Origin: Alphaproteobacteria bacterium
Lineage (GTDB): Bacteria > Pseudomonadota > Alphaproteobacteria > SP197
Assembly (NCBI GenBank): GCA_964291265.2
Contig: OZ219747.1
Location: 384,001 to 448,000 of the forward strand
Direction: 5' to 3'
DNA: 64,000 bases
Below the pieces are notes generated by a model. That model was not told the origin of the DNA. It saw only the letters and a program-made list of their open reading frames with translations, and did no database searches. Shown here in pieces: positions 45,105-58,480 of this stretch (position 1 is its first letter; each line of letters starts with the position of its first letter). Position numbers and translations under genes: made by a program.

Positions 45105-45128
45105 TAGGAGTCGATGACACAGCCATCC

Positions 45129-46931
45129 TAGATTCCTTGAATGAAGGCAATGGTGCACAGATGAGCCAAGTTTTCATCACGGACATATTCAGGCGGCAAG
45201 GGTCTGTCCCTCCCAGAGTTTGCTGACCTCGTCATCGAGCGAGTGGAGGATGCGTCCGAGCCTGGATGGCACCTTGTCATCGAAGGCCGCCGCCAGGGCA
45301 GGGCTGAGTGTCCGCCGGTGGATGCGGCAATAGGCAAGAGCGATCCTCTGCCCTCTTGCGTCAGACGATAGCGATGGGATGACGGTATCCTCTCGATGAG
45401 GCCCCGCAGGCGCAGGCGCCGCAGATCATAGGTGGCCTGACGTGAGCCATAGGTATCGGTCGACAGGAGGTCGGCAACGGCCTCTCTCATCTGGCGGTTG
45501 TTGAAGCCCATGGGGAGGAAGACATGCAGCAGGATGGCTGCGAGGACTGCCTGGATGCGTGGATCACCGAAGCGCAGGGCGGATACCCGACGTTCGTCGA
45601 CGACGACAGGTTGATGCAGGGCATCGAAGGTGGCTGCTCCGATCGGACAGTCGTGACTGATGCGTTGGACGTCGAGAAGACGTCGGGTGGCGTCGAAGCC
45701 GACCTCCTTGAGGTCATCGAGGTTGATCAGTCTGCGCTTGATGCCGAAGTCGTACGTGTTGTTGATCACCGTCTCCGTTCGCAGGGCACGGCCTTCCTTG
45801 AAGGACTGCTTGATACGCGAATGCCTGTCATCCACATGCAGCGACGGCTGCACGCCGTCGGTGATGACGCGGGTTCTGAACCGCGAGGTGGTCCGCCGTG
45901 TGATACGGCGGTTGAAGATCAACTGCACATGGTCAGGACGGCCGATGTCGAGGTTCTCGCGAATGATCTCCTCGAACAGGATCCGGCCGTGAAGAGGACG
46001 GTCAAACACCTGTGTGAGCGCACACTCCGCCTGGAGAATCGACAGGTCGTAGCGGATGCCCCTCATCGCGTCCTCGTCGGTGAAGGGATGGGGAAGCCAT
46101 GCCGTCCACTTGCGGAACAGCGCGTCGATCCGTGAGGCATCGATCTCCCCGGCCACGGCCTGCATGATCCGAGGATCGGCACAACTCAGGATGCCGTTGT
46201 CGAGAGCCTCGAAGGCCACCCCGCGCTTGCTCAGCTGACGCTTCAGGTATTCGTGACCATTGAGGCACAGCTTGGCGTTGTACGGGAAGTAGGAACAGAA
46301 CTTGATGAAGCAGGGACCAAAGTCGTCGTCCACGATGTAGATGTACCAGGCATTGACCATCGCCGTGCTGTGAACCAATTCGCAGGACGCCCTGCCCGTC
46401 GCCGGATCAACGCGCTTCTGCGTACGCAGGACACGGGCCTTCTCCTGGGCCTTGCCGACGTAAAGGACACCTTCACCGCCAGACCACAGGCGAAGATACT
46501 TCTGTGTCACATCATCCTTGCGCTCCCCCTTCCTGAAGCTGACAAGGTCGACACCCTGATCCCGGGCAAACCGCTCCAGGCGCGTCACAAAGCGCCGCGT
46601 CATCGGCGCCATCAGAGCCGATGACGGAACAGGATTGCCCCGAACCTCCCGAAAGAACCAGGCCGCGCCACCACCCGTCTGCAGCATTGGCACATAGGCG
46701 TTGAGATAAAGCCGGTCCAGACACTCAAGCTCCAGCGTCACGTGATTCTCAAGGACCTCGCCAACAGACCGTGCTATCGTCATCTTCTGGCCTCCGAACG
46801 ATGGGTTCCCCACATGGTTATCATAACCAACCCTCGGGCTGTATCAGGCGGGTCACCGCAGAGCGGAACAGCGGGCGGAGTCCTTTCCCTTCCGCGACGT
46901 CTCTCGTCGGTCTGAGGCATAGCCTCATTAG
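45129..46931 (-). mobile_element. Putative TIR-less single-gene mobile element bounded by TAG/CTA
   Basis: TAG at 45129-31 and 46929-31; the rejoined empty site is the palindrome GCCATCCTAGGAAAGGC; hairpin-rich 5' leader; no terminal inverted repeats seen. Confidence 0.6.
45189..46783 (-). pseudogene. Approx. 530-aa unclassified transposase/Rep-like protein with C-terminal wHTH, frameshifted near 45348
   Basis: ECLDRLYLNAYVP, LNGHEYL, SRIKQSFKEGRALRTETVIN, TYDLRRLRLRGLIERIP..HRYRLT; the alternative frame ends RIALAYCRIHRR...QTLAA* at 45189. Confidence 0.7.
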
Positions 46932-47055: not shown

Positions 47056-48027
47056 ATGGCCAGATTCAGAGGAACCGACGGCGACGACTGGCTCTACGGC
47101 AACTTGCTCTTCGGCGGCGCTGGCAACGACTGGCTCTTTGGCGGCGACGGCGACGACAAGCTTCGGGGCGGTGCTGGCAACGACATGATCTACGGCTTAA
47201 ACGGCAACGACAGGCTCCACGGCGGCGACGGCCACGACAGGCTCCACGGCGGCGACGGCGACGACGGGCTCCACGGCGGCGCTGGCCTCGACAGGCTCCA
47301 CGGCGACGCTGGCCACGACAGGCTCTACGGCCACGCTGGCGACGACTGGCTGGAAGGCGGAGCCGGCAACGACATGCTCTACGGCGGAGCCGGCAACGAC
47401 TGGCTCTTTGGCGGCGACGGCGACGACAAGCTTCGGGGCGGTGCTGGCAACGACAGGCTCGACGGCTTAAACGGCAACGACAGGCTCTCTGGCGGCGCTG
47501 GCAACGACTGCCTCTCTGGTGGCGCTGGCAACGACATACTCTACGGCGGAGCCGACAACGACTGCCTCTTTGGCGGCAACGGCGACGACAGGCTCTACGG
47601 CGGCGCTGGCGACGACAGCCTCTACGGCGACGGCGGCAACGACTGGCTCTCTGGCCGCGACGGTGGCGACACGCTCCGGGGCGACGCTGGCGACGACACG
47701 CTCCGGGGTGGCACTGGCGACGACACGCTCTATGGCGACGCTGGCGACGACACGCTCTACGGCGGGAAGGGCGACGACACGCTCCGGGGCGGCGCGGGCA
47801 ACGACCGCTTTTTCTTCGATGCCGAAAGCGACCATGACACCATTGCCGACTTCGGGAACGGCAGCGATACCATCGTGTTCAAACAGAAGTTGGCCTACGC
47901 CGACATCATCATCAAGGACCGCGACGCCGGGACCGTGATTACCGGGCCTAATGATGACTGGAGCATCACGCTTGAAGGCGTGACAGCGGCCGAGCTTACC
48001 GAAAGCGACTTTGAGTTTCTGGGATAG
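47056..48027 (+). CDS. RTX (hemolysin-type Ca-binding) repeat protein with T1SS-type C-terminus
   Basis: About 27 consecutive GGxGxDxLx nonapeptides, then DTIADF...SITLEGVTAAELTESDFEF. Confidence 0.93.
   Translation: MARFRGTDGDDWLYGNLLFGGAGNDWLFGGDGDDKLRGGAGNDMIYGLNGNDRLHGGDGHDRLHGGDGDDGLHGGAGLDRLHGDAGHDRLYGHAGDDWLEGGAGNDMLYGGAGNDWLFGGDGDDKLRGGAGNDRLDGLNGNDRLSGGAGNDCLSGGAGNDILYGGADNDCLFGGNGDDRLYGGAGDDSLYGDGGNDWLSGRDGGDTLRGDAGDDTLRGGTGDDTLYGDAGDDTLYGGKGDDTLRGGAGNDRFFFDAESDHDTIADFGNGSDTIVFKQKLAYADIIIKDRDAGTVITGPNDDWSITLEGVTAAELTESDFEFLG
47083..47810 (+). repeat. 27-bp coding tandem repeat array
   Basis: GGCGGCGCTGGCAACGAC-type units; near-identical blocks at about 47120-47215 and 47390-47485 (270 bp apart). 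Confidence 0.9.
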
Positions 48028-49408: not shown

Positions 49409-50276
49409 GGCTTCCGTCGTCCATCCGACGCACGCAATTGGCAAGGGCACGAGTGATAAGCCCTGCGGCCTTCCCGTGCAATGCGGCACGGAGTGACGAT
49501 GGACACCGAACGTCGGCGGCGTCATGGAAGACTTGTGCGGCGGGCGTCACCATGGAGACCGTGACGGGAGCCGACCGCCGTGAAGGATACTCTCGACTGC
49601 GCGATCGTCGGCGGGTGTACGCTTGCCCAGTGTCTTTCCACCGACAGTGTCATCCGTGTGCTCGTGGTGGAAACCGGAAGATGGGACCGCGGTCCCCCGA
49701 CTCACATTCCGCTGGGATGGGGCCGCGTCCTTCATGACTCCCTGCGCGGCTGGATGTATCTCCATGAACCCGTGCAAGGGTCTGGTGCCACGGCGTCGAG
49801 TGCGCCAGGAACAAGATCGTCGGAGGATCATGCTCGGTCAAGGCCATGGCATATGTGCGGAGAACCGCACGACTGCGACACCTGGGCGGCCGGCGATTCC
49901 GTCGACTGGGTCTGGATCAGCATGCGTCCCTGCTTCAAGCGCCAGGAGATCTGGGAGGAAGGCGCCGATGCCTGCCGGTGGCGCCCTCAACGTCCAGTTC
50001 TGCACGTACCGGGTTCCTCCTGTTGAGGCCTTGGGCGAGGCTGGCCGCGAAGCCCATCATGCCTGGACCGACGACTACAACCCCGCACACCAGGACGGTT
50101 TCGCTCGCCTGCAGATGACCATTCGCCCCGGCCGCCTGAGCGAGTGCCGCTTCGGCCGGCCTGCGCCCGGCACCCGGAAGGCGTGAACCGAGCGTGAACT
50201 CCCAGGCCAGGCGCATTCTCTGCGAGGGTGCGAGCGCCGTGGGCGTGGGGGCGCGCCAGGGCGAGCGGACACACAC

Positions 50277-52651
50277 CTTTCAACCAGACACTGTTGAATC
50301 CATCTTTTTCAGCATATCGAGTTCCTGCAGTTTCCGCATATTTCGGTGATGTTCGACGAAGGTGAGGAGGATTTCGTATCCCTGCCAGAGTTTCTCAGTC
50401 CCCGGCAGGGGTTGACGTTTTCTGGGAATGAAGCCCGCCAGGCGTGCGACGTCGACGGCGAAGGCTGCGATGGTCGGTTCGGGATCGGGAGGTCCACGCG
50501 GCGTGCGCTGTCGGCTGACCTTATAGATGTTCAGGACCGTGATCTCGTCGCGGTGGACGATGTGGCTTGCCGGGGTGTCTGGTGCCGAGCGTGCGAGGCG
50601 CTCGACGGTCATGACGCGGCATGCGGTGATGGCGTCGAAGGCCAGACACTTCCTCAGATCGTCGGCCTGGTTGAGGCGCCGGTCCTTGATCCGGGTGCCG
50701 ACCTTCAGGGCCTTGAAGTACTCTTCGATCCACCATCGCCTCTCGTAGAAGGAGACGGTCTTGAGGGCATCGTCTGCGGTGACGTCGCCTTCGGTGGTGA
50801 GCAGCATCCAGTCGAGAGGATCGCGGCCTGGCGGTGGGGCGGGTTCCGTGACCCGCACGGCCATCATGGAGAGCGGCGGCGTTGCCTGAGGCTTCTTGTC
50901 CGGCGGAGCCAGGTCGACCCTTGCCGCACGGACTTCGAGGCGTACGCCCTTGCGCTCCTTGCGACGACGCGGCCCTCCGCAGGCTGCGATGTCGATCTGC
51001 TTCGTTGCGATGCACGGCTCGTCCGCCATGTAGTCCCAAAGGTCCCGGCAGGCGCCCGTTGCGGTGACCACGCGGCGCCGTGTCGAGCGCCTGACGCGCA
51101 CCAGCAGACCGGCCTCGTGCTCCGTGCTCCGGGCCAGCAGGTCCCAGATGTCGCCTTCACGGTCACAGATCACCAACACCCTTGTCGAAGGACAGGCAGC
51201 GGCCAGTTCCACGGCCTTGTCGTACCCGTCGAGCCAGCGCCGGCTCTCCTTGTCGTCTGGCTCGTCCTTCTTCTGATCCGGCTTGAGACGGAAGTCGGCG
51301 TCGAGATGGAACAGGCCGAGGGATGAGCCGCCTTCGCTGAAGGCAACCCCGGCATGGGCCGCCATGCCAAGGGCGCCCGAGCCGCCGCCGCCGATGTCAA
51401 CAAGACCCTTGGTCGCCTCCAAGCCGTTGTCATTCAAGAACGTCGTGTCCTGGATGGCAAGAATCAGGCGCTGCGAACGGCAGCGTTCCACCATCGCTTC
51501 CTGGTGCCCCTCAAGGATATGCTCCATCGTCACCCTCGGATTCGACAACAAGCGGTAGGCCGCCTTCTGCTCCGCCTCGCCGGGGAAGATCACCGGCAGG
51601 ATCGCGCCGGGACGATCGTTCCACGCCCGGCCCATGGTGACAAGGCGCTCGCGGATGCGCACGTCACTGTGGCTGCTGCGGGCGTACTCCCTCATCGCCC
51701 AGTCGGTCCTGTCATCACCGACAAGGGGCGCCGCCTGGCCCATGACACGCTCAGGCTCCCGGCACAGCACGGCGCGCCAGTCAGGCGTCAGGGGCTTCAT
51801 CCATACGGACCGCTGCACGCCCGGGCCGGTGGCCCCGGGAGGTCGACCCGAGGTCATCTCCTCACAGCGCTCCCAGCCCGCCGCCCGGTAGCTCACGCCG
51901 CTGTGCTCGGGACCCACATACGTGTACGCCAGAACCGGCTTCACCCCGTACTTCTCGTGCCAGTCCGTAGCCAGACGCCGGCAGGCACAGGCCAGGGCAT
52001 GGGAGGCCAACTCCTTCACATCCACCGATGGAAGAATCAGGAAGCGATCATTGTTGACGATCTCGCCGAGGTGGGCGACACGGGCTCCCTGGGACCAGCC
52101 GATGAAGTCGTCGCGCGCCTTCTGGTGCCAACTCGCCGCACCAAACACCAGGCCGCCGAGGCGACCGTGGCGCGACGAGGTGATCCAGTAGCTCACCCGG
52201 GCTCCGGGTGCGCACGCCTCGCCTTCGGGATGCCAGGTCGCCATCATCGAACGGGCCAGGCGCTTGTCCTCGCCCTCGCCCACAGGCTCCAAGGTGACCT
52301 CTCCAAGGTCCTCCAGAGAACAGGCGAGGAGCTTGTCGGGATAGTCCCGCTCAAGGATGTCGGCGCCGGTGCCGAAGGCATCAGGCCTTGGTGCAGGAAG
52401 GGCGATGTCGAGCGACGCAGCAAGGTCAGGCAGGGCCGCACGCGCCGAGGCAAGACAGAGCTCGCCCTTCGCGTTGCGCCACTCCTCGCGCTCGCACAAT
52501 CCCCGCGCCAGAGACGAGCGTGTGCTGCCCTCGGCAGCCGACGCCGCCTTCAGCCAGTCAACCGTCGTCGCAGACAGATGTCGAAAGCCGATCCTCATGG
52601 GCCACTATGTAAGGCCTCATGAACGTCGAGTCAAGCCTGTCCCGTTGAAAG
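50277..52651 (-). mobile_element. IS4-family element A (2375 bp)
   Basis: TIRs CTTTCAACCAGACA / CTTTCAACGGGACA; 9-bp TSD GACACACAC at 50268-76 and 52652-60. Confidence 0.93.
50280..52598 (-). CDS. IS4/IS50-type transposase with N-terminal DUF4338 (DruA-like) domain
   Basis: ARDDFIGW, VNNDRFLILP, GVSYRAAGW; Tn5-like DNA-binding WAMREY; DDE motifs AIQDTT, CDREGD, YERRWWIEEYFKALK. Confidence 0.9.
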   Translation of the reverse strand: MRIGFRHLSATTVDWLKAASAAEGSTRSSLARGLCEREEWRNAKGELCLASARAALPDLAASLDIALPAPRPDAFGTGADILERDYPDKLLACSLEDLGEVTLEPVGEGEDKRLARSMMATWHPEGEACAPGARVSYWITSSRHGRLGGLVFGAASWHQKARDDFIGWSQGARVAHLGEIVNNDRFLILPSVDVKELASHALACACRRLATDWHEKYGVKPVLAYTYVGPEHSGVSYRAAGWERCEEMTSGRPPGATGPGVQRSVWMKPLTPDWRAVLCREPERVMGQAAPLVGDDRTDWAMREYARSSHSDVRIRERLVTMGRAWNDRPGAILPVIFPGEAEQKAAYRLLSNPRVTMEHILEGHQEAMVERCRSQRLILAIQDTTFLNDNGLEATKGLVDIGGGGSGALGMAAHAGVAFSEGGSSLGLFHLDADFRLKPDQKKDEPDDKESRRWLDGYDKAVELAAACPSTRVLVICDREGDIWDLLARSTEHEAGLLVRVRRSTRRRVVTATGACRDLWDYMADEPCIATKQIDIAACGGPRRRKERKGVRLEVRAARVDLAPPDKKPQATPPLSMMAVRVTEPAPPPGRDPLDWMLLTTEGDVTADDALKTVSFYERRWWIEEYFKALKVGTRIKDRRLNQADDLRKCLAFDAITACRVMTVERLARSAPDTPASHIVHRDEITVLNIYKVSRQRTPRGPPDPEPTIAAFAVDVARLAGFIPRKRQPLPGTEKLWQGYEILLTFVEHHRNMRKLQELDMLKKMDSTVSG

Positions 52652-52924
52652 GACACACACCGTCCGCCGGGCGCGAAGTCATCGTGCCATGCGGGGGTAT
52701 CGATTCGGCGACATTCCTCATGCATTCTGGCCTCGGCGCTGTCCACGCCCTGCGCCAGCATGACATCCTGGTTCTCGTCGACCTGCCCGGTGTCTACGGC
52801 ACTCTGCAGGACCATATCTCGACGATCCTGCCCTACCCCTGCCGAGAAACCGGGGCCCTTCGCCAGGGCCATGCGCCATGCGGCGGGCCCGGTTTCTCGG
52901 CAGCGGCCTTGCCCTGCCTATTTG

Positions 52925-55282
52925 TCATAAATCGTGCAGGGCGCGGTCATGTCCTTCCGACGTCGGATCCAGATCGAGGGCCTCGAGCAGGCATTCATAG
53001 GCCAGGGCAGCGGTGGCCAGTCGCGGATAGCCATGCCACATCGTCTGGTTGCCCGGCGCCGGATCATGCTTGCGGTCCAGATACCCGCCGAGGATCGCCA
53101 CCAGCTTCACCGCCGCCCCCAGCGTGTCGGGCGGGTCCAGCCGGTATCGCCGGGCATAGTCGCCGAGGAAGCGGAGTTCCAGGTCCGAGAACAGGCAGTC
53201 GGGCTTCATCGTCGGCACATCCCGCCCGAGCAGGGTCATCAGGGCAAGACGCCAGGCGATCACGGCGTGGATGGTGATCTGCCGTTCCAGGCGGCAGGCC
53301 TTGCGCGTCGCCAGGTGCTCCACCCGGCAGCCGGACTTCAGCACCCGGAACCAGCATTCGATCCGCCAGCGCAGCGCGTACCAGCCGACGATCTCCTGGG
53401 CCGCTTCGGCGTGGTCCACAGGAAGGTCGGTCAACAGGAACCATTCCACCGGAGCTTCCCCGGCCGGCGGGGCCGTCTCGAGGAGATGCAGCGCGGTCAC
53501 GGCCACGGGCGCGGCATCGGGGCAGCCAGCGGTCGCCGGCAGCGTGGTCGACAACCAGCGCAACTCCAGCACCGCGTTCCGCCGGGCAGTGCGGCCGGGC
53601 TGCTTCTTGCGCCCCGAGGACTTCGGCCGGGCCGTCAGGCGGGGTATGTCGATCTGCATGGTGCCGCGGCAGGCAGACGTACGTAGTCGGGTGAACAGCT
53701 TCGCAGCCCCGCGCTTGAGGACCCGGTCATGTCGAGCCCGCACCAGCATCGACAGACGGCGATGCTGCCGGCACCGGTCGAACAGTTCGAAGAAGTCCGC
53801 TTCCCGGTCCATCACGCACACGACCTTCACCCCGGTCGTCCGGGCCGCGAGGTCCGCGATGTCGTCGAGACCGTCGAGCCAGCGCTGCGACTTGCGCCGG
53901 GACATCTCGACATCCTCGCCCGAACCGGTCTTTGCCCGGGGGCGGGGAGGAGCGTCGAAGGCAAGACGCGCCACCCCCAGCGGCAGGCCTTCGCCGCTGA
54001 CAACGTAGCTGGCGTGCAGGTGCAGGCCCAGGGTCTGCGAGGCCGTCTGGTTCGTGCCGATGATGCCCAGACCGTCGCAGCCCGGACGGGTCGCGAAGTT
54101 CAGGTCCGTCCCGTCCTGAATGCACAACGCCACCCGCTGGCCGCACATCCGCTGCACCGTTCGTTGACGGTGCGGCGCCAGGATGTTCGCCGGGGTCACC
54201 GCCGACGTCTCCGGCTGATCCAGGAACCGATAATAGGCCCGGACACCGGCAGGATCCGGGCGCGCCAGACCGCTGTAGGACGACATCGGACTCTCTCCCT
54301 GTCTTCGTGCAATCTCCACCAGGCGCGCACTCAGACGCCGGTCGCCGATCGGCGCTCCCCCGAACTCGTGGTGCGCCCACGCCGAGGCGTCCAGACCCTC
54401 CCCCGGGGACAGGGCCGGCATCGGCTCCGCCACCCCCAGCTTGTGCCGCCAGTCCCGGTCCAGAACGTACATGTACACGGCCTTGACGCTCTCGGCCATC
54501 TCGCGCGCGCGGTCCTGACGGCCTCGGCCCCGGGTGAACCCCACGAGCTGCCAGTTCGCCGCCCGCAGGCTCGCACCGTCGCGCGTCGGGTCGACATAGG
54601 TCTCGACCAGCCATGGCAGGAACCCGTAGCGCTGCGCAACATCGGCGCCCAGGCGAGACAGGCACATCGACAGCGTCTTCGACGCAAGGTTCGCAACCGG
54701 CACCCGGATCAGAAACCGGCTCATCGACAGCACCCGGTGTCGCTCCGCACGACGCCGGTCGGCATCCCAGCCGATCCAGGCATCCCGATCCGCCACCTTC
54801 AGCGCCGCTGCGGCAAAGCCGAAACCGCCGAGACAGCCGTGAGCGGAATCCACCAGATAGCGCAGCTGATGACCGGCCAGAATGGGAGCGCCGAGAAAGT
54901 GCTCCCGCGCCATCAGTTCGTTCCAGAGCGCCCGTTCGGCATCCGTGCGCACCAGCAGGATCCGCAGACCCTGGATCGCCGCCACGCTCGCCGGCACATC
55001 ACGCGGCTTCTCCACCGCCTCGCCGAGCCGGCGGGGCGTTGCCCGACGCCGCTGACCGGAGGGCTCCGGCAAGCCCTCGATCCTGCCCTGCGATGCCAGC
55101 TGCTTCAGGGCCACGACACAGCTCGATACCCGCTCGCGTCCCCGTGCGTCCCGCAGGCCGAAGTGCCGGCACACTTCCAGCGCCAGGCGGTTTTGACTAC
55201 TATCGCCGCTCTCGGTGACGATCGACTGCAGGCGATCGAGCTGGTCCTCGAGGACGCGTTTGATCGGAATGTGTGCTTCCAT
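52925..55282 (-). CDS. IS4/IS50-type transposase with N-terminal DUF4338 (DruA-like) domain
   Basis: EHFLG...QLRYL, DRDAWIGW, SRFLIR..NLAS, ETYVDP..GASLRAANW; CIQDGTDL, MDREADF, YALRWRIECWFRVLKSG. Confidence 0.9.
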   Translation of the reverse strand: MEAHIPIKRVLEDQLDRLQSIVTESGDSSQNRLALEVCRHFGLRDARGRERVSSCVVALKQLASQGRIEGLPEPSGQRRRATPRRLGEAVEKPRDVPASVAAIQGLRILLVRTDAERALWNELMAREHFLGAPILAGHQLRYLVDSAHGCLGGFGFAAAALKVADRDAWIGWDADRRRAERHRVLSMSRFLIRVPVANLASKTLSMCLSRLGADVAQRYGFLPWLVETYVDPTRDGASLRAANWQLVGFTRGRGRQDRAREMAESVKAVYMYVLDRDWRHKLGVAEPMPALSPGEGLDASAWAHHEFGGAPIGDRRLSARLVEIARRQGESPMSSYSGLARPDPAGVRAYYRFLDQPETSAVTPANILAPHRQRTVQRMCGQRVALCIQDGTDLNFATRPGCDGLGIIGTNQTASQTLGLHLHASYVVSGEGLPLGVARLAFDAPPRPRAKTGSGEDVEMSRRKSQRWLDGLDDIADLAARTTGVKVVCVMDREADFFELFDRCRQHRRLSMLVRARHDRVLKRGAAKLFTRLRTSACRGTMQIDIPRLTARPKSSGRKKQPGRTARRNAVLELRWLSTTLPATAGCPDAAPVAVTALHLLETAPPAGEAPVEWFLLTDLPVDHAEAAQEIVGWYALRWRIECWFRVLKSGCRVEHLATRKACRLERQITIHAVIAWRLALMTLLGRDVPTMKPDCLFSDLELRFLGDYARRYRLDPPDTLGAAVKLVAILGGYLDRKHDPAPGNQTMWHGYPRLATAALAYECLLEALDLDPTSEGHDRALHDL

Positions 55283-55379
55283 GCAGGGCAGGGTCAGACG
55301 TCCTGACCTCGTGAGTTGACTTGATCCGTCCGGACCTTCTTTTTTTCCAACACAATGAACGGGTTTCCCAGTTTTTTGC

Positions 55380-55430
55380 TTGACACCATAGCCGTGGGGT
55401 GATCCAATATAACATGACGCCTATATTGGA
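55380..55430 (+). promoter_or_regulatory. Transposase promoter with operator-like palindrome
   Basis: TTGACA at 55380; TCCAATATA-N10-TATATTGGA at 55403-55430. Confidence 0.6.
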
Positions 55431-55442
55431 GCATTCCAGGCC

Positions 55443-57708
55443 ATGAACACGCTCGCAATGCACCCTCCCGAAGCCGTCCAGATCGGAACCTCGTGCTTCT
55501 CCCTTGCCGACCTCGACGGACAGACCGTCTACTTCTCGAACATGGAGCCCTTCGACTGCCACGACGAGGGCGACCGGCCGGCCATGCTGCTGCGGATCGC
55601 CAGGTTCGTCAGGCACGGCGTTCCTCAAAGAGACCTGCAGGCGGCCTTCGACGTGAGCCGCGCGACCGTGCAGCGGGCTTATGAGGAAGCTCCGGGACAG
55701 GGGTGAAGCGAGCTTCTACGAGCCACGCAAGGGCCGTGGTCTCAGCGTGATCACAGGCGAGACGGCAGCCGCGGCGAACCGTCTCCTGGCCGAGGGCATG
55801 AACGCCGCGGCACTGGCCCGGGAACTGGGGATCGCGAGATCGACGGCGTACTACAACCTCAGCAACGGCTTCATCGGCGGCGGAGAGCGGCCGCAGGCGG
55901 CGCAAGTCGACGAGGCCACGCGATGCCCGGACGATCTTCTCGGCCGCGGCGAACGGGACCGTCGCGACAGGGTCGCGCCGATGGGGCGCGGCGCGCGCGA
56001 CAGCGCCGGGCGCGTCGCGGCCTCGACGGGAGCCATGAGCGAAGCGCCGCCGCGCTTCGACGAGCCACTCTCGGCGGTCGCCGGCGGCGGCGTCCTGGCG
56101 GCGCTGCCGGCGCTGCTGAAGGAGGGTCTCCTGGAGCACGCGGACAGGTTCCTGTCGCTGCCGAAAGGGTACTACGGGCTGACGAGCGTGCTTCTCATGC
56201 TCGCCTTCCTGTTCATGGCCCGGATCCGCAACCCCGAGGCGCTGCGCCACGAGGCGCCCGGGGAACGGGGTGCGGTCCTGGGGCTCGACCGCTGCCCGGA
56301 GGTCAAGACGCTGCGGCGCAAGATCAGGGCGCTGGCGAGCGACCCGCAGCGGGTCCGGGACTGGCAGGACGCGCTGGCGAAGGACTGGATCGCGGAGGCG
56401 CCGGATGTCTGCGCGACACTGTCGGTGGACGGGCACGTGAAGGTGTATACCGGCCGCAAGGGTCGCCTGCCGAAGTACTTCGTGTCACGTCAGAAGCTCT
56501 GTCTGCCGGCCTCGACAGGCTATTGGGTCAACGCGCTCGGCGGCCGGCCGCTCCTGTGCCTGCACAAGGACCTCGATCCGACCATGACGCACGCGCTGGA
56601 GCACGACATCCTGCCCGCGCTGGAGCGGCTCGGCCTGCCGGGGCCGGAGGCGCCGGACCTCGCCAGGGGAGAGGCGGTCGCGCCGGGGCTGACGCTGGTG
56701 TTCGACCGCGAGGGCTGGAGCCCGGCGCTGTTCGCCCGCCTCGCCCGGCGCGGGGTGGCGGTGATCACCTGGCACAAGGGGTTCCGGAGCGATCCCTGGC
56801 CACAGGGAGAGTTCCGCACGGTCCGGGCGCCGCTCCACTCACCAGGTGGCGTCCGCACCGCCGAGGTGCGGCTCGCACAGAGACGGATCACGCTGTCCGG
56901 CGGACCGCAGGTGCGCCAGATCCGGCGTCTTCTGGACAGCGGCCGGCAGGTGCCGCTTGTCACCACGGACATGCACACGCCCATGGAGCGGGTCGCCGGC
57001 GCGCTGTTCTCGCGCTGGTCCCAGGAGAACTTCTTCAAGTACATGCGCCAGGAGTTCGGCCTCGACACGCTGGCCGTGCACGGCCTTGTCGAGCAGGACC
57101 CCGAAGCGCGCGTCGTCCATCCGCACTGGCGCCGCTGCGACCGCCGCATCCGCCAGCTGCGCCAGAAGCTCGGCACACTGCGCAACCGCGTCGCCGACCT
57201 GCTCAAGGGCGCCCCGTCCGACACCGCCATCACGGCCGCCGCGACGCTGCAGGACAAGATCGTGACGCTCGACGCCGAGCACGAGGCGCTCAAGGTCCGG
57301 CGTTCAGAAATCCCGAAACATGTCACCGTGGCCGAGCTCGACGAGAACGACAGGCTCGACGCCCTGCCCTCCAGCGAGAGGCTGCTGCTCGACATCGTTC
57401 GCATGATCGCCTACCGCGCCGAAACCTGGATGATGGCCGCCGTCGCCCAGGCCCAGGGCGCAAAACAGCGTCCGCGACGCCCCCTCGCCGAACTGTTCCA
57501 GTCGGACGCCGACATCATCCCCGATCAGGAAAACCGCGTCCTGCGGGTGCGCTTCCTCGGCACCGCCAGCAACGCGCGCGACGCCGATATCGCCGGACTG
57601 CTCGACGAACTCAACCAGACGCGCACGACCTTCCCAGGAACCGACCTGCGCATGATCTACGAACTGCCAGACAACCCAGCCAAACTCGGCCCAGAAGCAT
57701 CAAACTGA
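55443..57708 (+). CDS. Putative DDE transposase (about 755 aa), split by a 1-nt frameshift at about 55680
   Basis: N-terminal HTH runs across two ORFs (VSRATVQRA|MRKLRDRG); LSVDGHVKVY, LVFDREGWS, FSRWSQENFFKY. Confidence 0.8.
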
Positions 57709-58480
57709 TTGGACAAATTCATAGCCGAGGTCAGGACGTCTGAGGGTGCACCATCCGAATCATCTTGTCCAGCACGATTTATGACCCAAGAGTAGGCCTT
57801 GCCAGCGACCCTCCAGCAGGAATCACCGCCATCCTCGAGACCGACGTCAGACTGTCGGCGCCCGACATCCGGCTCCCTTCCTGCGGCAGCCCGCGCAACG
57901 CCGGTCCGTGACGCCTCGAACCCTTCACGGATGGCTTTGTCTTCCCCGCAACGGGGAACGGATCACGCTCGCCGATGGGAATCCTGCGGCATGGACGCCT
58001 CTGCAGTTGACGTTCCTTGCCAGGGAGAACGACTGGAAGGCGATGCGCCGGGTATCGAGCTTGCCCGCGATGTCCCTTCGCAGCTGCTCTCGGGCCCTTA
58101 CACAGACGCCGGGACCGGGAGGCAGGGATATCGGCGATCACATCCGATCGGCTCCCATCTCCGTGCATCATCCGCCGGGCGCCTGCTCGATGGGACGTGA
58201 CGGCGATCCGGCAGCGGTCGTCGACCGGATCCTGGAAGTCCATGGAGCCACGGTCCTGAGGGTCATCGATGCCGCGTCATGCCGCGCCTCGCGAGCGTCG
58301 GCGTCAACGCCGCTCCCATCGCCGTGGCGGAGCGTGCAGCCGGCCTCATTCCGGACAATCCGCCGCTTCCTCAGGTGGCGGAGATCATTGCGGATGGCGG
58401 AGGGCATCCTGTAGGCTCAGGCTCCCTGATCCGGCCCCCTGCCCTCCGGGGAACGGATTGACCTGACGAGGGAGATCCCC

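Follow-up and report, generated by a model that had tools for sequence, protein, structure and literature searches.

What is a domain named after an anti-phage protein doing at the front of an insertion sequence (IS) transposase? The question is raised by a 64,000-nucleotide stretch of an Alphaproteobacteria bacterium genome (GenBank assembly GCA_964291265.2, contig OZ219747.1, positions 384,001 to 448,000; hereafter referred to as the window), in which two IS elements, E1 and E2, encode transposases with an N-terminal extension that Pfam names DruA (DUF4338). We conclude that E1 and E2 are active-looking IS50-type elements with a conserved domain resembling the DNA-modifying enzyme Mom of phage Mu, a variant of a known IS type that has probably been predicted before. 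The domain may itself modify adenines in DNA, a proposal that is weighed below against four other explanations.

A preliminary description of this region had placed two IS4 elements, each with its own terminal inverted repeats and target-site duplication (TSD), at 50268-57803. Element ends, further copies, and empty sites all agree with this, and the span runs exactly from TSD to TSD. The features are as follows:

50268..50276, no strand: E1 TSD, 9 bp, GACACACAC (second copy 52652-52660), with which the empty site agrees
50277..52651, minus strand: E1, IS50/Tn5-type element of 2375 bp with ends CTTTCAAC...GTTGAAAG, defined by copies and an empty site
50280..52598, minus strand: E1 fusion transposase gene, 772 aa (open reading frame (ORF) 52598-50280)
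51753..52316, minus strand: E1 Mom-like/DruA GNAT domain, residues 95-282
52654..52911, plus strand: fragment of a decayed gene for a GMC oxidoreductase (sub-threshold PF00732 match, E 0.003)
52906..52913, no strand: E2 TSD, 8 bp, GCCTTGCC (second copy 57796-57803), with which the empty site agrees
52914..57795, minus strand: E2, IS50/Tn5-type element with a nested IS inside, defined by copies and an empty site
52925..55282, minus strand: E2 fusion transposase gene, 785 aa (ORF 55282-52925)
54428..54985, minus strand: E2 Mom-like/DruA GNAT domain, residues 100-285
55061..55282, minus strand: E2 N-terminal four-helix domain
55295..57742, plus strand: unrelated IS nested in E2, 2448 bp, with a Pfam Transposase_29 match, 17-bp inverted ends, and a 5-bp TSD, AGGGT

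E1 and E2 lie in tandem. They had been called divergent, which is true of their sequences (the proteins are 31% identical over their length) and untrue of their orientation; a divergent gene pair was rejected because the two genes share the minus strand. The two-element description was right about both elements, and its title left out the nested IS that splits E2. This insertion makes E2 4882 bp long; its net length is 2434 bp, other E2 copies measure 2429-2437 bp, and its 20-bp ends are imperfect. The nested IS sits 12 nt upstream of the E2 ATG and has probably cut this copy off from its own promoter. It matched no NCBIfam family above cut-off, 14 of its left ends are present in the genome, and its gene is broken into two frames near 55680-55706 in the window copy.

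Contigs from a related sample (run X3) fixed the element ends and TSD lengths of E1, E2, and the nested IS independently. A 12.8-kb contig omits 2384 (2375 + 9) and 4890 (4882 + 8) bases, which are both empty sites, and a second contig omits 2453 (2448 + 5) bases, corresponding to the nested IS and its TSD. Both E1 and E2 interrupt the same decayed gene, which has a weak GMC oxidoreductase match, and the genes adjoining the elements have metabolic and transport functions. The GMC piece also contains a hairpin (52836-52906; 22-nt arms, 91% complementary) that terminates at the E2 target site.

The NCBIfam IS4 model NF033590 matched the E1 and E2 proteins with 291 and 288 bits, respectively (cut-off 160). 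The transposase motifs QD(T/G)T, DRE, and Y-2-R-3-E-6-K are all there, and Pfam matches to Tn5-type DNA-binding and dimerization domains extend from residue ~300 on in both proteins. All motifs named in the preliminary description (RD..IGW, RFLI, LAS, the TYV-type motif, and DDE/YREK) were found in both. The extra N-terminal residues, put at ~270, do exist; they number about 295, with Tnp_DNA_bind beginning at residue 299 (E1) or 301 (E2), and form two domains, namely a small four-helix domain and, after a linker, the GNAT domain named DruA by Pfam:

E1 protein: helical domain, residues ~1-75; Mom-like GNAT domain, ~95-282 (H123, R185, S199); Tn5-type transposase from ~299
E2 protein: helical domain, residues ~7-64; Mom-like GNAT domain, ~100-285 (H128, R189, S201, E227, D231); transposase from ~301

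The DUF4338 assignment holds for both proteins, with Pfam DruA (PF14236) matches above cut-off (E 2e-21 and 5e-26) that run from the start of the model through half to two thirds of its length and include L..RD..IGW. DUF4338 has been described as a GNAT domain (PMC10853773). The four-helix domain, modeled with a predicted local distance difference test score (pLDDT) of 88, gave no significant sequence match in the PDB, and its matches in the Atlas were unnamed clusters; our guess is a winged helix. It is also found in stand-alone IS66 passengers and is missing from ISAs1 fusions.

An AlphaFold model of E2 residues 1-290 (pLDDT 92.7) was compared with 48,161 PDB representatives, among which Mu Mom (8bv8) came out best (Z 15.1, root-mean-square deviation 3.2, 165 residues aligned), the next GNAT following at Z 11.9, more than 3 Z units lower. 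A phage Mom ranked fourth among the BFVD viral models (E 2e-7), and a 64-sequence domain profile aligned to 11 phage Mom sequences with 97% probability (E 7e-11, 132 columns). The suspected GNAT fold and kinship with Mom are thus supported by the model, both fold comparisons, and profile-profile alignment. A PDB sequence search with the domain found no Mom. Pfam Mom (PF25680) matched neither the E1 nor the E2 protein, and its weak matches to 23 of 57 relatives (best 2e-5) speak for the kinship.

Mom takes glycine from Gly-tRNA and attaches it to N6 of adenine in double-stranded DNA (PMC13219725). R111, S124, R151, and a helix-turn-helix (HTH)-like insertion are essential, H58, Y59, D149, and Y159 are important, and mutation of Y59, D149, or Y159 much reduces activity (PMC13219725). 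CoA binding, which had been suggested as a test of the domain, is therefore the wrong criterion, and CoA as co-substrate is not supported. An older proposal involving acetyl-CoA and iron, with residue numbers 10 lower (PMC7261163), was rejected as a yardstick since it has been superseded by PMC13219725.

These residues were scored for conservation across the 150 best library hits. The equivalents of R111 (150/150), S124 (146/150), and H58 (149/150), the first two of which are essential in Mom, are kept, and correspond to R189, S201, and H128 in E2 and to R185, S199, and H123 in E1. Y59 is kept in 83 hits, D149 in 81 (with E in 53), and Y159 in 117. Tn5-type fusions are the most eroded at Mom residues, with Y59 replaced by P in 35 of 49, while stand-alone IS66 versions come nearest to Mom at Y59, D149, and Y159. 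The full G..Y.A.N motif that had been claimed is present in neither protein (E1 GVSYRAAGW and E2 GASLRAANW, versus GVVYQASNF in Mu Mom). E227, near-invariant in the same hits (146/150), is not a Mom residue, and a basic loop motif, GRGRxDR, is conserved. Judging from model and alignment, the domain is like Mom in fold and core, yet outside strict Mom membership.

The domain is under constraint equal to that on the transposase, and selection is purifying. Across 37 pairs, which are not independent and of which some are saturated, the ratio of nonsynonymous to synonymous substitution rates (dN/dS) was 0.05-0.51 for the domain (defined in 36/37) versus 0.09-0.41 for the transposase (35/37); for E1 against four congeners, it was 0.25-0.37 and 0.28-0.38, respectively. 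The fusion is old and co-inherited: domain and transposase distances are strongly correlated (Mantel r 0.94; 73 non-redundant Tn5-type fusions), and 11 of the 16 strong splits in the domain tree recur in the transposase tree, with one in conflict.

The domain is widespread in uncultured bacteria. A genome scan yielded 203 related stretches, and the 80 retained come from metagenome-assembled genomes titled alpha-, beta-, gamma-, and deltaproteobacteria, acidobacteria, planctomycetes, and others. The domain was found in 11 of 18 congeners. Across the phylum, 19 of 301 genomes had a PF14236 match, true DruA-like proteins counted in, as against none of 14 control genomes. In the library, 1,838 clusters (50% identity) matched at E 1e-30 or better. 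The top 150 comprise 49 IS50-type fusions, nine with a second IS4 clade, eight with ISAs1, and five behind IS66, besides 54 solo proteins or fragments and 25 without a class, the latter including one IS630 and one ISAzo13 fusion (10 proteins scanned). Seven of 10 inspected stand-alone loci adjoin an IS66 transposase. Ca. Thiodictyon syntrophicum Cad16T is also a carrier of the domain. Its presence on several IS families indicates that the domain serves no single transposase chemistry.

Complete, multicopy E1 and E2 elements with TSDs show that the domain travels inside the elements. The genome contains seven E1 left ends, of which six belong to complete copies with 9-10-bp TSDs (two with a common flank), and nine two-ended E2 copies, all with an 8-bp TSD; the near-identical sequences and differing TSDs of the copies imply recent mobility. 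The two E1 copies at G000:C2:3656007 and 4249530 have identical TSDs and flanks, sit in a Mom-like ISAs1 element, inside its 3' end, and were apparently duplicated together. The F3 family, also with an intact domain, has nine copies. E1 and F3 have 9-bp, GC-rich TSDs, while the 8-bp TSDs of E2 and F5 are centered on CTAG or one-off variants (C..G in eight of nine E2 copies, CTAG in all three F5 TSDs). In this genome, the domain has 123 hits, 52 of them complete in one frame, and is carried by IS50-type, second-clade IS4, ISAs1, and IS66 elements. With this many copies, the 203 relatives, and the empty sites, an assembly artefact or chance read-through was rejected.

Several other loci in this genome vary the architecture. 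Three copies of one IS50-type family have a common frameshift, either programmed or a lesion, within the domain, two of them with different TSDs. At G000:C2:1917262-1928132, a putative group II intron, so named from its 3' motif, interrupts an IS50-type fusion where the Mom-like domain ends. In an ISAs1 fusion transposase (L006, G000:C2:3249774-3251876), 8-residue repeats form a variable tandem array.

The IS66 elements of this genome, in which the domain is encoded by a gene of its own that overlaps the transposase stop, bear on when it is needed. Among 31 IS66 transposase 3' ends, three are followed by a full-length domain gene, 24 lack the GNAT core, and four are interrupted or could not be resolved; the core was lost in at least two separate deletions. 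Perfect 8-bp TSDs flank 16 of the 19 core-deleted copies with both ends located, and none of the three full-length copies could be paired with a TSD. Since core-deleted copies have spread with clean TSDs, the domain is dispensable in cis for IS66 spread, and a strict cis requirement was rejected. The earlier suggestion that the domain shields intermediates or marks targets, read as a need in cis at each jump, is likewise not supported. Long-term constraint combined with short-term dispensability would point to a benefit between hosts, or to restraint on the element, rather than to a part in strand transfer.

Another multicopy IS66 in this genome has a gene for a Dam-like adenine methylase (TIGR00571, E 1e-9, below cut-off; 16 hits) that overlaps the transposase start. 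It is represented by L159 (G000:C2:1427244-1429699) and at least six more full copies, with 8-bp TSDs in all seven examined. The methylase occupies the slot held by the Mom-like gene in L107, L109, and L126, which, by analogy and not as proof, fits adenine marking.

We propose that the fused Mom-like GNAT domain would be catalytically active on DNA, where it would modify adenines, the added group probably being an amino acid from charged tRNA. Mom-modified DNA resists many restriction enzymes (PMC7261163), and the benefit would be that the element survives restriction on entering a new host, the cut-and-paste step itself not being served. Fusion would tie the modifier to low transposase expression and keep it near the element, and such low, local expression could limit toxicity of the kind that free Mom has in E. 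coli. A DNA-modifying role of one purpose or another seems to us somewhat more probable than not; that the domain is an IS-borne adenine modifier with an anti-restriction purpose, aiding spread between hosts, is our preferred reading, held with a little less than even confidence.

Several observations weigh against this proposal. The equivalents of Y59, D149, and Y159 vary (P/G/Y in E1, F/D/L in E2), and the R151 position falls in an alignment gap, in a loop that also varies among the 11 phage Moms. The HTH-like insertion of Mom (175-209) is absent; in the model, its counterpart is the basic loop, ~18 residues (250-267) between the last strands. GNAT substrates vary widely and cannot be read from structure (PMC13219725). 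Vehicles are few: matches turned up in two of 72,556 plasmid records and none of 50,697 phage records when single sequences were searched against collections drawn mostly from cultured hosts. Scanning viral contigs with the IS66 passenger, which reaches close relatives only, also found no relative. At low expression, a transposase fusion may leave too many sites unmodified for restriction to be stopped. Finally, the 52 intact domains could complement deleted IS66 copies in trans, which would leave room for a role in transposition.

The same chemistry could serve another purpose, in that the domain might restrain or time transposition by marking the ends or promoter of the element that carries it, a part played by host Dam for IS50 and IS10. 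Such self-restraint is consistent with the predominance and cleaner TSDs of core-deleted IS66 and with the Dam-like methylase in the same slot. Families with an intact domain have expanded too, however (E2 and F3), other causes often make shortened derivatives more numerous than complete elements, and no modified site is known; we consider this explanation unlikely. An active GNAT might instead act on tRNA or protein, either as a toxin-like addiction factor or by acylating the transposase or a host factor. The breadth of GNAT substrates (PMC13219725), the proposal that DUF4338 fused to DndF acts on proteins (PMC10853773), the missing DNA-binding insertion, and E227 would fit this. On the other hand, Mom outscores every protein and small-molecule acetyltransferase by more than 3 Z units, the invariant R111 equivalent is described as Mom-specific (PMC7261163), neither E1 nor E2 contains an antitoxin gene, and the domain is tolerated in dozens of copies and readily lost by deletion; we hold a non-DNA substrate to be slightly less likely still.

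It is improbable that the domain is a non-catalytic nucleic-acid-binding module for target choice or transpososome assembly. The loss of several Mom residues in Tn5-type fusions, the conserved GRGRxDR loop, and the CTAG-like target centers of E2 and F5 could be read in this way, but the R111, S124, and H58 equivalents remain invariant, TSD length and target are not the same from one domain-bearing family to another, and in IS66 the domain is a separate gene that can be lost. The anti-phage role suggested in the preliminary description, with the IS carrying a Druantia-like gene as host-benefit cargo, has in its favor the Pfam DruA match and the Druantia DruA label that databases attach to such proteins. 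Against it, PADLOC DruA1 matched E1 weakly (E 0.001 over 74 residues) and E2 not at all, the flanking metabolic and transport genes include no Druantia partner, and most inspected stand-alone copies adjoin an IS66 transposase. We regard this role as very improbable.

Two further genes occur elsewhere in the window. A 561-aa ORF (45128-46813, minus strand) without a Pfam or NCBIfam match is probably mobile-element related, and a 323-aa protein (47056-48027, plus strand) consists almost entirely of RTX calcium-binding repeats.

An abstract by Iyer, Tahiliani, Rao, and Aravind from 2009 (Cell Cycle 8:1698) reportedly linked Mom-like proteins to diverse bacterial transposase families; if so, it would have foreseen the present fusion and the modification of DNA by transposons before the Mom mechanism was worked out. 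We know of no experiment on the link between Mom and transposases. Our literature search, the coverage of which did not include Iyer 2009 and Iyer 2013, found no paper on a Mom-like/DruA-transposase fusion; the available passages of PMC4738411, PMC7824862, and PMC13316683 contain nothing on it, and the main text of PMC13219725 does not contain "transpos," DUF4338, or DruA. Mom-type hypermodification is established only for phages. If the preferred reading is true, a transposon-borne version (~1,800 clusters at 50% identity) would bring a new actor into IS biology along with a large reservoir of DNA-modifying enzymes, and the 2026 Mom mechanism makes DNA modification testable. Importance is tempered by the fusion being common, by the probable 2009 prediction, and by the function being predicted only. 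In IS-rich genomes, counts of anti-phage genes based on DruA/DUF4338 annotations come out too high, as the number of domain hits in this genome alone illustrates. Stated most broadly, and with due caution since we would not quite bet on it, many unrelated IS families may carry their own aminoacyl-tRNA-dependent DNA hypermodifier, interchangeable with a methylase and writing the element's own epigenetic mark with a modification possibly other than Mom's, and most environmental "Druantia DruA" proteins may be these enzymes.

Compared with known systems, the domains share with Druantia DruA (PF14236) their Pfam match, but E1 and E2 lack the Druantia operon, their genes being enclosed by IS ends within the decayed gene for a GMC oxidoreductase; Druantia type I is defined by an operon with druB-E. 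In the phylum survey, full-length DruA-like proteins have, by eye, other motifs in place of RFLI/NLAS/ETFVD, and they scored just 12-18 bits with the IS-domain profile; the converse profile comparison with DruA-like proteins comprised three sequences only and was uninformative. One full-length DruA-like gene (L105, G311) is located directly behind a TniQ gene. With IS50/Tn5 (NF033590), E1 and E2 share the Tnp_DNA_bind, DDE, and dimerization domains, Y-2-R-3-E-6-K, short inverted ends, and an 8-9-bp TSD; they differ by the N-terminal extension and by a length of 2.35-2.6 kb, compared with ~1.5 kb for IS50. Mu Mom (8bv8, PF25680), the nearest solved structure to the model, shares the GNAT fold and the equivalents of H58, R111, S124, and G156. 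The IS domain is 14% identical to it, has no HTH-like insertion, and is variable at Y59, D149, and Y159, and it is distinguished from Mom by an extra RD..IGW hairpin-helix, an N-terminal helical domain, and fusion to a transposase.

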